Source of the DNA: an uncultured archaeon
GTDB lineage: Archaea; Thermoproteota; Bathyarchaeia; 40CM-2-53-6; CALIRQ01
NCBI GenBank assembly: GCA_938042195.1
Contig: CALIRQ010000009.1
Coordinates: forward strand, 1,443-65,442
Length of the DNA: 64,000 bases
Direction: 5' to 3'
Part shown: piece after piece, positions 25,544-28,615 of the stretch
Layout of the letters: every line of letters begins with the position of its first letter
Numbering within the stretch: position 1 is the stretch's first letter
Program-made: the position numbers and the translations under genes
Notes under the pieces: model-generated
Told to the model about the DNA's origin: nothing
The model's database searches: none
Seen by the model: only the letters and a program-made list of their open reading frames with translations

Positions 25544-26068
25544 TCATTGGAATCTCTCATGGCATATTATCTCCCCCAAGGGCTTCCTGTCGGAGGTCTC
25601 CTTGAAGGCATCTCGGGCGGGATACCCTATCGGGATTACGGCGACCACGTTGTAATCCTCCGGGATCCCCAAGAACTCCTTCAGGGCGGAGTTATTGAAG
25701 GCGCCGATCCAGCAGCTGCCCAACCCTTCGGCCCTAGCTGCGAGCACCAAATGGTCGACGGCTATCGAAACGTCCACCAGCATGCTCATATCCCCCATGT
25801 AATCCCCTCTGTTGAAATCAATCCTCCTCCCGCAGGCCACTATGACCAGCGGGGCCTCGGCAATGAAGCCCTGCCCATGGCAGAGCTTGGCGACCTCTTC
25901 CTTCGCCGACCTCTCCTTGATCAGTATGAACTTCCAAGGCTGGCGATTGGAGCCCGAGGGAGCGATCCTCGCGGCCTCGAGTACCCTTTTTATAACGTCC
26001 TCCGGTATCGGATCGGGCTTGAAGGAGCGCACGCTCCTCCTGGTCCTTATGACCTCGTAAAAATCCAT
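25544..26068 (-). CDS. nitroreductase family protein
   Basis: Internal Met of ORF 25544..26221. MDFYEVIRTRRSVRSFKPDPIPEDVIKRVLEAARIAPSGSNRQPWKF. Confidence 0.8.
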   Translation of the reverse strand: MDFYEVIRTRRSVRSFKPDPIPEDVIKRVLEAARIAPSGSNRQPWKFILIKERSAKEEVAKLCHGQGFIAEAPLVIVACGRRIDFNRGDYMGDMSMLVDVSIAVDHLVLAARAEGLGSCWIGAFNNSALKEFLGIPEDYNVVAVIPIGYPARDAFKETSDRKPLGEIICHERFQ

Positions 26069-26289
26069 GGACCATCCTCGCCCGATGGCCCATATGCCAA
26101 ATAAAAGCCTACCGGCCCATTCGGGCGGCACGGGAACTATTCCCCATTCAAAAAGCGCGCATAGAGTTAGACAGGGGGCCTTGGGAATAACTCCTATATA
26201 TGGGATGGCACCGTATCTCAAGCGTCGATCGCGGAGGAGCGGGCCCCGATCTCAGACGTTCCCGAAAGCTATTTTGAGACCCATCCTTC

Positions 26290-26350
26290 AAAAGGCTTAT
26301 TAAACTTTATACGATTTTAAACATTTTTGTTAAAAAATAATAAAATAAAA
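26290..26350 (+). promoter_or_regulatory. AT-rich BRE/TATA region upstream of the TBP gene
   Basis: aaactttatacgattttaaacatttttgttaaaaaataataaaataaaaa. Confidence 0.5.
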
Positions 26351-26397
26351 AGGGGCCTCTGGAGCTCTCCAAATCACGCTAATCGGGTTGATGCGAC

Positions 26398-27285
26398 TTG
26401 GCGGGATTAAAGGACTCTTTCATCCAACCATCCCTTTCCGAGATGGGAGCCGAATTGCTCGCAATATTCCAAAAGCGCCCATATGAACCCCGTTCTTTGG
26501 AATCCTTGGCCAGGGATGTGGGAAGGAACGCTGAGGAGGTGGAGGCGGGGCTTAGGGAGCTTGAGAAATTGGGCCTACTCAGGAGCCCGGAAGGCTATGC
26601 GCTCGATTTGGCCAAAGCTAAGGCGATCGGGATCAAATACGCCCCCGGTGAGGGGCGGATCCAAAGGCCGGACATATCGATAAGGGTGGAGAACGTAGTC
26701 GCGTCCGGCAAGCTCGATCATGAGCTGGACCTCCAATTCATAAGCAGGATCGCCCCGTCGGCGGAATACAGGCCCGAGGTATTCCCAGGCTTGGTCTATA
26801 GGCTGAGGAAGCCGAAATCCGTATCGCTGATATTCTCATCGGGGAAGATCGTCTGCGCCGGGGCCAAGTCGGAGCGCCAAGCCAAGATGGCCATAAATAA
26901 GATCGTGGAGGAGCTGAAGATGAAGGGGATAGTGATCGCCGGGAACCCGGCCGTCCGCATAGACAATATAGTGGCATCGGCCGACTTCAGAGGGCAAATC
27001 GACCTTGAGGGGATGGCCGAATCAAAGCCCAGGACCATTTACGAGCCCGAGCAATTCCCGGCCCTAATATATAGGTCTGACGATCCGAAGGCCGTGATGC
27101 TCGTATTCTCCAGCGGAAGGGTGATTTGCTCCGGGGCCAAGAAGGAGAGGGATGCCAAGCGGGCGCTGTATAAGCTATTCTATGATTTGGCGGAGAGCAA
27201 TTTGATATTCAGGACGGAGCCAACTTATGGAATGATGCCCTCGATAGGGATCCCATCCCCAATGAGGGATGTTCCCCAATTGTAG
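26398..27285 (+). CDS. tbp: TATA-box binding protein with about 95-aa N-terminal winged-helix-like extension
   Basis: Two TBP repeats (IRVENVVASGKLDHELDL...SGKIVCAGAKSERQAKMAI / RIDNIVASADFRGQIDLEG...SGRVICSGAKKERDAKRAL). They are preceded in-frame, with no stop, by LLAIFQKRPYEPRSLESLARDVGRNAEEVEAGLRELEKLGLLRSPEGYALD. Start is TTG at 26398 or ATG at 26443. A minimal TBP from GTG near 26687 cannot be excluded. Confidence 0.8.
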   Translation: MAGLKDSFIQPSLSEMGAELLAIFQKRPYEPRSLESLARDVGRNAEEVEAGLRELEKLGLLRSPEGYALDLAKAKAIGIKYAPGEGRIQRPDISIRVENVVASGKLDHELDLQFISRIAPSAEYRPEVFPGLVYRLRKPKSVSLIFSSGKIVCAGAKSERQAKMAINKIVEELKMKGIVIAGNPAVRIDNIVASADFRGQIDLEGMAESKPRTIYEPEQFPALIYRSDDPKAVMLVFSSGRVICSGAKKERDAKRALYKLFYDLAESNLIFRTEPTYGMMPSIGIPSPMRDVPQL

Positions 27286-27289
27286 AGCC

Positions 27290-28615
27290 TTAGACGCGGT
27301 CCCCATCGGCCCTCTTGACTAAGAAGAGCGGCCCCTCCTTCTTAATTATAATAACCTTATCGCCCCTTTTGGCGGCATCTTTGAACCTTGCCTTCCAAAC
27401 CTCGCCCCTCCACATCAGGAACCCCTCCCCCTCGGCTTGGACGTCGTCCAAGGCCTCCGCGATCTCCCCTACGCCCTCGCTATGAATGGGAGGCTTCCTG
27501 CGGGCCCTGAGGACCTTGAAGGCGACGAAGGCGACGAAGGCCAAGAAGACCCCCGCCGTCGCCCCTATGGCCATTAGGAAAGATATGATCCATTCCTGCG
27601 ACACGGCCCATTTCTCCGGGCTGAGCGAGAGGAATAGGAAGCTCCCCAACAACACGCATATGATGCCTGATGTCCCGAAAAGCCCGAAGCCGGGGGTCAA
27701 GGCCTCGACCAGCAGTAATACGAAGCCTAGCGAGAGGAGGAGGATCGCGCCCAGATCGACTTGGGCCATCCCGAGGCCTATGAGGCCCAATATCGTCAAT
27801 ATAGTCCCGGCTATAATCATCGGGTACACGGCCGTCATCAGGCCGAAGAATATGGCCATGAAGCCGAAAGTGAAGAGCATATAGCCCACCATGGGCTCGG
27901 ATACCACCCTCAGGACCTTCACCCTAAGGCTCGGGGAGAACTCCAGCACCGACGCGCCCCTGGTGCTCAACTTTACCTCGCCCAAGGCCGTCCTGACGGC
28001 CCTGCCGTCCGCCGCTTCCAAGAGCTCCGGCAGGGTCCTAGCCAATATCTCCACGACCCCTTGCCTATGGGCTTCCTCGGCCCCAAGGTTCAGGTTCTTC
28101 CTCACAAAGAGTTCGGCGGCCGTTTCGTTCCGGCCGTGCATCCTCGCCCGCTCGGTCGCGAGCTTCGCGAGCGCGTTTATTACCTTCGTATCGTTCACCG
28201 GGACGCCGGTCGAGGTCACGGGTTGCGCCGACCCAATGACCGTGTGGGGGGCCATTGCCGCCAAATGCGTCGCCAATAGGATATAGGTCCCGGCCGACCA
28301 AGCCTTCGCCCCCTCCGGGTACACATATCCAATGAAGGGCGTATTCGATGCGGCTATCGCATCCATTATGCCCATCATGGAGTCCACGAGCCCCCCAGCC
28401 GTGTTCAATTGAAGGACTATCGCCCCAGCCCCAACTTGGGATGAGTACGATATGGCCTCCTTCACGGCCTCATAGCTCGCCGGCGTTATGGTCTCCTCCA
28501 GCCTCACGAGGAGGACCCTAGAGCCATAGGGAGCGGCGAGGGGATGGGGAACGCGCGCCGCCGAGATGAATGCCAAGAACAGGAGTATGGCTATTGGCTT
28601 GGCCTTACCATTCAT
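27290..28615 (-). CDS. NfeD-family membrane-bound ClpP-class serine protease (stomatin operon partner)
   Basis: Signal/TM, ClpP-like domain, multi-TM middle and C-terminal OB-like domain. The neighbouring stomatin gene overlaps its start region (28612..28615). Confidence 0.8.
   Translation of the reverse strand: MNGKAKPIAILLFLAFISAARVPHPLAAPYGSRVLLVRLEETITPASYEAVKEAISYSSQVGAGAIVLQLNTAGGLVDSMMGIMDAIAASNTPFIGYVYPEGAKAWSAGTYILLATHLAAMAPHTVIGSAQPVTSTGVPVNDTKVINALAKLATERARMHGRNETAAELFVRKNLNLGAEEAHRQGVVEILARTLPELLEAADGRAVRTALGEVKLSTRGASVLEFSPSLRVKVLRVVSEPMVGYMLFTFGFMAIFFGLMTAVYPMIIAGTILTILGLIGLGMAQVDLGAILLLSLGFVLLLVEALTPGFGLFGTSGIICVLLGSFLFLSLSPEKWAVSQEWIISFLMAIGATAGVFLAFVAFVAFKVLRARRKPPIHSEGVGEIAEALDDVQAEGEGFLMWRGEVWKARFKDAAKRGDKVIIIKKEGPLFLVKRADGDRV

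Follow-up and report, generated by a model that had tools for sequence, protein, structure and literature searches.

A TATA-box-binding protein of Bathyarchaeia with a fused N-terminal winged helix-turn-helix domain of the family PF25212

Archaeal TATA-box-binding proteins (TBPs) are regarded as minimal proteins that consist of the core only, and promoter selectivity is ascribed to the multiplicity of TBP paralogues or to separate regulators. Canonical members, such as those of M. jannaschii (2Z8U), S. acidocaldarius (1MP9), and P. woesei (1PCZ/1AIS), are 180-200 amino acids in length, start six to 12 residues before the first strand of the core (S1), and in many cases carry an acidic tail. 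Promoter selectivity through variant basal factors is found among TBP paralogues, including the haloarchaeal TbpA-F and the Methanosarcina TBP1-3, and activators such as Ptr2 recruit TBP in trans, where a regulator with a winged helix-turn-helix (wHTH) brings TBP to the promoter. In reviews of TBP innovation, N-terminal expansions have been treated as eukaryotic and low-complexity. A rare combination of a "winged-helix repressor domain + TBP domain" was listed without analysis for the protein Q8TJ64_METAC (Brindefalk et al. 2013, PMC3597702), and no description of the present wHTH-TBP fusion was found in a literature search. The gene analyzed in this study lies in a stretch of 64,000 nucleotides (nt) of the contig CALIRQ010000009.1, from an uncultured hot-spring archaeon of the Bathyarchaeia (assembly GCA_938042195.1). 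Within this stretch, referred to as the window, the gene encodes a TBP that is preceded in the same reading frame by a wHTH domain.

The gene encodes a complete TBP fused to a PF25212 winged helix, and the fusion is conserved, under selection, and rare; the mechanism proposed for it further below is an inferred one. The coding sequence and its parts are listed below, with the source of each assignment in parentheses.

26398..27285, + strand: coding sequence of the wHTH-TBP fusion, 295 amino acids plus stop, with a TTG start (open reading frame list)
26437..26607, + strand: winged helix-turn-helix of PF25212 (HVO_A0114-like), residues 14-70 (Pfam, AlphaFold 2, Foldseek, and the ratio of nonsynonymous to synonymous substitution rates, dN/dS)
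26608..26673, + strand: short helix after the wing, followed by a basic linker, residues 71-92 (AlphaFold 2, charge, and alignment)
26674..27207, + strand: TBP core of two pseudo-symmetric repeats, residues ~93-180 and 181-270 (PF00352, matched twice)
27208..27282, + strand: C-terminal tail, rich in Pro and Gly and non-acidic, residues 271-295 (alignment, charge, and AlphaFold 2)

A TGA codon is located in frame at positions 26389-26391, upstream of the TTG, and a start of this open reading frame (ORF) further upstream is therefore impossible. An in-frame N-terminal extension had been noticed in a first-pass annotation of the window, which was made from the DNA letters without database searches, and it was borne out by the present analysis. 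The premise of that annotation, namely that archaeal TBPs normally start about 10 residues before the first repeat, agrees with the six to 12 residues found there in 2Z8U, 1MP9, and 1PCZ, and hence about 90 residues of the fusion protein are without an equivalent in ordinary archaeal TBPs. The wHTH (residues 14-70) and the TBP core (residues 93-270) are joined by a linker of 22 amino acids (residues 71-92), in which AlphaFold 2 predicted a helix at residues 71-76 and then a low-confidence segment that was read as disordered. This linker has a net charge of +3, and the RIQRPD at its C-terminal end is invariant among the close relatives of the window protein (hereafter the window clade). The tail (residues 271-295) has a net charge of 0, a predicted local distance difference test score (pLDDT) of <50, and a sequence that varies across orthologues. 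NCBI, ENA, and Logan each contain a protein (P0181) identical to that of the window.

Four independent orthologous loci were compared, which included the window and the loci L001, L002, and L005. The relatives P0001, P0003, and P0004 were collinear with the fusion protein of the window and shared sequence identities of 90%, 81%, and 78% with it, respectively, and P0001 was 85% identical over the extension alone (92 amino acids). Two further relatives were shorter: P0002 has 269 amino acids, with a gene call that begins at codon 20, and P0005 is partial. Among the four loci, codons 1-270 were collinear with zero indels and zero stops. Pairwise dN/dS (Nei-Gojobori) ranged from 0.18 to 0.27 in codons 2-92, from 0.13 to 0.30 in the winged-helix core, and from 0.08 to 0.12 in the TBP core, at synonymous distances (dS) of 0.3-1.1. 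The TTG was codon 1 in all four loci and the sole start codon common to them, and the internal ATG (M16) was missing from L002 and L005. The GC content was 0.50-0.60 along the whole ORF versus 0.32 at positions 26300-26399, and no AT-rich island was observed in the GC profile ahead of the TBP core inside the ORF. Translation of the extension is supported by the collinearity of these loci, the low dN/dS, the conserved TTG, the occurrence of the same architecture in a second clade, and the lack of an internal AT-rich island. Judged by these comparisons of sequence, the extension is under purifying selection and is conserved at the protein level in two clades, far beyond chance, and it is the long frame that is translated, with the long protein as its product. 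A lack of conservation in the upstream frame, which the first-pass annotation had regarded as telling against the extension, was not observed when the N-termini were compared across the related loci.

It is very improbable that the start is mis-assigned, with an ordinary TBP that begins around codon 97 and an upstream frame that is untranslated or encodes a separate product. The GTG near position 26687, which had been put forward as the alternative start, is codon 97 of the long frame, and a GTG was found there in both the window and L001. In addition, the NCBI annotation pipeline PGAP itself picked different starts for near-identical fusion genes of the cluster P0001, resulting in proteins of 288, 273, 269, and 255 amino acids. 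However, L002 has ATC and L005 has ATA at codon 97, which hence cannot be the start of the family; the nearest in-frame start in these two loci is GTG100, and a protein starting there would have strand S1 deleted. A start near codon 97 is also at odds with the purifying selection and the absence of frameshifts or stops over the extension in the four loci, with the presence of the fusion in a clade that is only 47% identical, and with the GC profile, where a promoter-like AT-rich stretch was not found before the core. The probability that the fusion is a chimera of assembly or binning, or that two genes have recently become joined by a pseudogene-like read-through, is close to nil. While all data came from metagenome assemblies, no specific support for a chimera was found, and the gene and its synteny were independently assembled in NCBI, JGI, ENA, and Logan from many samples, on contigs of up to 164 kb. 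Regarding existing annotations, the fusion genes are named plainly "TATA-box-binding protein" in NCBI, and two fragments at contig ends are named "hypothetical protein". Together with the discordant PGAP starts, this means that the N-terminal domain is represented inconsistently in databases.

Profile matches and structural models indicate that the N-terminal domain is a winged helix-turn-helix of PF25212 (HVO_A0114-like), in line with the winged-helix-like sequence that had been read from the upstream frame. In the isolated extension (residues 1-92), residues 13-62 matched PF25212 with 27.7 bits, as compared with a gathering score of 27.6, and in longer sequence contexts the match was borderline at 25.2-27.4 bits. 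The second-clade protein P0123 scored 30.8 bits, and 17 of the 21 aligned family members matched the family. An AlphaFold 2 model computed from the 21-sequence alignment displayed a winged-helix topology, with helices at residues 15-26, 34-41, and 45-57 and strands at residues 61-62 and 67-69, and with pLDDT values of 76-87 over residues 11-70. The same N-terminal fold was found in the model of the full-length protein.

A Foldseek search against the PDB returned CymR (Rrf2), HpaR and MepR (MarR), GntR-family proteins, and Z-alpha domains, with template modelling (TM) scores of 0.5-0.63 and none with E <= 0.001. A sequence-profile search of the PDB yielded weak MarR, ArsR, and Crp matches and no others, and the Pfam matches of the MarR, ArsR, GntR, and Rrf2 types were all below their gathering scores (13-17 bits). 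The wHTH is ~60 amino acids long without extra helices, and neither the family thresholds nor the dimerisation and effector elements of one-component regulators were found. The likeness to the MarR, ArsR, GntR, and Rrf2 regulators is at the level of the fold only. The first-pass annotation had also considered a TFE-like module, which was not sustained: PF02002 was not matched by the full protein at E <= 1 or by the isolated domain at E <= 0.01. An hhalign comparison of the wHTH profile with the TFE-alpha of L007 gave a probability of 0.7%, no TFE appeared among the Foldseek or PDB sequence matches, and residues 1-92 contain zero Cys, where a TFE would have a Zn-ribbon after the winged helix.

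An exhaustive hidden Markov model (HMM) search with the extension profile against 1.84 billion representatives identified 22 proteins at E <= 0.001. In this search, the PF25212-type domain was found solely on fusion TBPs, KaiC-like ATPases, and small stand-alone proteins. The nearest sequence relatives were the N-termini of KaiC/RecA-like ATPases of ~330 amino acids (PF06745), whose wHTHs shared 26-33% identity with E-values from 1e-9 to 1e-3 to the extension profile, and stand-alone proteins of 73-130 amino acids. The top profile match, P0121 (6824 amino acids, 26 stretches), was rejected as spurious, as it consists of E/K/L-rich coiled-coil repeats of the type "KEEVEAG" that score ~11 bits per repeat. 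A literature search on HVO_A0114 and PF25212 revealed no paper and no characterised member.

The TBP core (residues ~93-270) matched PF00352 in two stretches, with an E-value of 2e-56 and 188 bits as compared with a gathering score of 22.9, and the structures 2Z8U, 1MP9, and 1PCZ aligned without gaps to residues 92-271. Residue conservation was scored against 277 other archaeal TBPs, and yeast numbering was derived from our own alignment to yeast TBP. The DNA-contact residues N99, V101, F129, L144, F146, V152, N190, V192, F220, L235, and F237 are kept (yeast N69, V71, F99, L114, F116, V122, N159, V161, F190, L205, and F207). These include the intercalating F129, F146, F220, and F237 as well as N99 and N190, which are present in 276-277 of the 277 comparison TBPs. 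The residues of the C-terminal stirrup that contact transcription factor B (TFB), E216, E218, and Q219 (equivalent to yeast E186, E188, and L189), are likewise kept and are the same in at least 93% of the comparison TBPs. Judged by these residues, the core appears able to bind TATA boxes and to contact TFB.

Rare substitutions in the stirrup of the fused core are V128 and A222. The latter, which is located next to the TFB-contacting residues and corresponds to yeast G192, is Gly in 270 and Ala in seven of the 277 other TBPs. The central minor-groove Thr pair (yeast T124/T215) is replaced by A154 and S245 in the window and by S and A in the second clade. Thr is found at both positions in 84% of the 277 TBPs, and 13 of them, including the unfused P0070, are without both. 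A fusion-specific change in TATA reading through the loss of this pair was considered and rejected, since the unfused P0070, L023, and CAVXDP paralogues have lost it too; the loss is a trait of a subgroup and not of the fusion. Separately, Ala was observed at both the T124 and T215 equivalents in an unfused Bathyarchaeia subgroup (P0070/P0190, L023, L019, L025, L093, L109, L128, and L148), where this Thr-to-Ala pair may alter TATA recognition. The fused core shared 57-61% identity with mainstream Bathyarchaeia TBPs, which are 73-89% identical among themselves, and the unfused hot-spring TBP P0070 was equally divergent, with 55% identity to the mainstream proteins.

The second clade is composed of P0123 (281 amino acids), which was found by the HMM search with the extension profile, and P0142 (284 amino acids), which was added by a later profile search. 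Both have the wHTH-TBP architecture and are 47-49% identical to the window protein, with 47% for P0123 over both domains. They start with an ATG at the position equivalent to residue 6-7 of the window protein, and a TATA-like TTTTATAA is located ~46 nt upstream of this ATG. The genomic context differs from that of the window clade, with a CBS-domain gene downstream and an apparent tRNA 3' end upstream. Read by eye, the contigs of L006 (positions 1-50) and L007 (positions 1-30) open with this apparent tRNA 3' end (…GGTTCAAATCCCGCCCGGTCCACCA), ~270 nt upstream of the fusion; ARAGORN called no tRNA there, presumably since the contig end cuts the gene short.

The rare core states G104, V128, I151, A222, V242, and A253 are common to both clades, which favours one old fusion. 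A neighbour-joining tree of TBP cores did not resolve the two fusion clades as strict sisters. A separate wHTH gene beside TBP was found in none of ~155 other TBP loci, and there is thus no "split" version from which to learn. The fusion formed ~7 clusters (at 90% identity) among 5.8 billion proteins and was carried by ~12 Bathyarchaeia metagenome-assembled genomes (MAGs) in NCBI, with isolate names that point to a hot-spring sampling project. One of 185,579 GTDB species representatives (L008) contained it among the best 80 loci of a genome scan, where the peptide patterns left out canonical TBPs with the usual "MYEPEQFP" motif, and one further fusion locus was found in JGI (L091). The first-pass annotation had called the architecture unusual for a basal factor, with which this rarity agrees.

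Several TBP-like proteins of 269-289 amino acids were also observed in ENA and JGI metagenomes (P0006, P0007, P0143, and P0144). On inspection, P0006 and P0007 contained three TBP repeats, with the middle one a nearly exact copy of its neighbour, and a similar make-up was assumed for P0143 and P0144 on the basis of length and coverage alone. These proteins either arose by very recent tandem duplication or are artefacts of assembly.

In the window, L001, L002, and L005, the gene order is nitroreductase (-), fusion (+), NfeD (-), and Band_7 (-). An intergenic region of 329 nt (26069-26397) is shared between the fusion gene and the divergent nitroreductase gene, and three conserved elements were identified upstream of the fusion.

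26306..26344, + strand: AT-rich block TTTATAcgATTTTAAACATTTTTGTTAAAAAATAATAAA, 39 nt, 54-92 nt upstream of the start codon, near-invariant in the four loci
26387..26395, + strand: GTTGATGCG before the start codon, including the TGA at 26389-26391, invariant in the four loci with flanks that vary
26193-26204, between the nitroreductase and fusion genes: near-palindrome CCTATATATGGG, with a CCTATATAT core that is invariant in the four loci

The AT-rich block is near-invariant although synonymous sites differ among the four loci, and it is presumed to be the TATA/BRE (TFB-recognition element) promoter region of the fusion gene. A TATA box inside the block would place the transcription start site at ~26335-26375, upstream of the TTG. 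The block and the low GC content around it match the AT-rich, promoter-like stretch that had been noticed just upstream of the long ORF. The GTTGATGCG element may serve as a weak Shine-Dalgarno-like sequence or otherwise in translation initiation, and for CCTATATATGGG a role as a second TATA element, as a bidirectional one, or as a site for a regulator is conceivable. A scan of positions 25800-27600 with Rfam revealed nothing relevant.

Two side observations concern the nitroreductase gene. Its mechanical ORF spans 25544-26221 (-) and encodes 225 amino acids, while the orthologues were called with 174 amino acids, and a conserved ATG gives 25544-26068. A conserved AATAAAAGCCTA (+ strand) just upstream of this ATG looks like the nitroreductase TATA region. 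Elsewhere, in the locus L089 (JAWCKG010000007.1, 1428-8000), a stretch of ~6.5 kb without a called gene separates an intein-containing FeoB gene from the TBP gene P0190, and an rRNA operon or some other non-coding feature might lie here.

The fusion is one polypeptide, in which it is fairly likely that the wHTH tethered to a full TBP modulates TBP activity or promoter choice. The protein would bind TATA boxes and recruit TFB and RNA polymerase as archaeal TBPs do. The tethered wHTH would make a second contact, with a partner protein or with the DNA next to the TATA box, and this contact would restrict or modulate where or when the fusion TBP nucleates initiation. Such a protein would amount to a basal factor with a covalently attached regulator. 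Several observations weigh against this proposal. The full-length AlphaFold 2 model has a low confidence (predicted TM score of 0.39) and carries no information on the arrangement of the domains. None of the 10 NCBIfam TBP equivalog and subfamily cut-offs was reached, with NF001592 as the best (209 versus 270 bits), which marks the core as divergent. The AT-rich block at 26306..26344 and its sub-motifs are not repeated elsewhere in the window, and hence no regulon motif was found. In addition, the window clade has an acidic wHTH (net charge -4, isoelectric point 4.7), and E46, E47, and E49 are invariant in the N-terminal half of helix 3 of this domain, which argues against a classical major-groove reading. 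These Glu residues are at what we take to be the helix-3 positions where wHTHs of the MarR/GntR type contact bases, based on our own alignment with FadR. The wHTH of the second clade is basic, with an isoelectric point of 9.2. With an acidic domain in one clade and a basic domain in the other, charge gives no consistent signal. The acidic helix 3 makes DNA binding by the wHTH of the window clade doubtful.

For the role of the wHTH, a contact with flanking DNA, which would make the fusion a TBP for a subset of promoters, can be suggested tentatively. It is also conceivable, if somewhat unlikely, that the wHTH is not a DNA reader and instead serves in the docking of a partner, such as a signalling protein, TFB/TFE, or RNA polymerase, or in intramolecular, autoinhibitory gating. 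In the gating variant, an acidic face of the wHTH would fold onto the basic TBP saddle or the N-terminal lobe and control DNA binding, in analogy to the action of TAF1-TAND or Mot1 on TBP in eukaryotes. The acidity and the invariant Glu residues of the window-clade wHTH, set against an isoelectric point of 9.3 for the TBP core, are consistent with such a role, as is the occurrence of the same wHTH family on KaiC-like ATPases, which have reportedly been proposed as signalling hubs. Further points in its favour are a weak match to a PqqD-type peptide-binding wHTH (E = 0.09) and the use of acidic and aromatic residues by regulators of the N-terminal lobe of eukaryotic TBP (PMC7221094). However, DNA mimicry cannot be the function common to both clades, given the basic wHTH of the second clade. 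Moreover, the fold and the nearest structures are those of DNA-binding regulators, and no partner gene is conserved beside the fusion in both clades. With respect to its place among the TBPs of a genome, the fusion is probably a specialised paralogue beside a canonical TBP. Two to three distinct TBP loci were found in single Bathyarchaeia MAGs (L014/L018/L031 of CAYXJU01, L017/L019/L025 of CAVXDP01, L009/L029, and L021/L032), which makes paralogy plausible. That the fusion is the sole, general TBP of its lineage, with the wHTH as a lineage-specific accessory like the N-terminal region of eukaryotic TBP, is unlikely, with observations both for and against it. No second TBP was found in the window, and strong purifying selection acts on the core (dN/dS ~0.1). 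The fusion was found in 12 hot-spring MAGs and the cluster P0070/P0190, the closest unfused TBP, in three, apparently from one sequencing project; judged by the proximity of protein accession numbers, with other TBPs outside the comparison, no MAG holds both the fusion and a TBP of the P0070 cluster. Since P0070 itself is only 55% identical to mainstream TBPs, the 57-61% identity of the fused core alone implies no paralogy. In contrast, genomes of Bathyarchaeia commonly encode more than one TBP, the searches covered the top 120 matches and the clusters with NCBI representatives, beyond which a canonical copy would escape, and such a copy with the usual "MYEPEQFP" motif would also fall outside the patterns of the genome scan.

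With a selected and conserved fusion of this kind, nature would provide an example of a basal factor to which a regulator is permanently wired. The fusion also connects the transcription machinery with PF25212, a wHTH family that is poorly understood and otherwise occurs on KaiC-like ATPases, and a comparison of the full-length protein with a version lacking the N-terminal domain (delta-N) could show how extra contacts bias the placement of the pre-initiation complex. The significance would be considerably greater if the genome that carries the fusion had no other TBP. In that case, a basal factor with a permanently incorporated domain of the regulator type would recognise all promoters, reading two elements (TATA and a second contact) with one chain, and would have converged in function on the multi-domain sigma factors of bacteria.

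Among known systems, the canonical archaeal TBPs represented by 2Z8U, 1MP9, and 1PCZ/1AIS share the two-repeat saddle, the Phe and Asn residues, and the stirrup with the fusion. The fusion differs from them in ~90 extra N-terminal residues that form a folded wHTH, in a non-acidic tail rich in Pro and Gly, in V128 and A222, and in scores below the NCBIfam cut-offs. Q8TJ64_METAC, compared by the description of its architecture only, likewise combines a winged helix with a TBP fold in an archaeon, but it is from Methanosarcina, whereas the fusion described here is from Bathyarchaeia. The wHTH-KaiC-like ATPases (P0122, P0125, P0127, P0128, P0135, P0137, and P0141) have the same N-terminal wHTH, a linker, and a globular C-terminal domain; unlike in the fusion, this last domain is a KaiC/RecA-like ATPase (PF06745) and not a TBP. 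As a family, these proteins of ~330 amino acids (PF06745 / DUF7504) appear to be uncharacterised.

The N-terminal regions of eukaryotic TBPs also place extra sequence before the conserved core, and acidic elements can regulate the DNA-binding surface of TBP, as in TAF1-TAND/TBP (PMC7221094). However, these eukaryotic regions are of low complexity (polyQ and the like), do not form globular domains, and have no sequence relationship to the extension of the fusion, which is predicted to be a compact folded wHTH. Finally, TbpA-F, TBP1-3, and Ptr2 make use of separate polypeptides or of variation in the core only, while the fusion combines a wHTH and a TBP in one chain.

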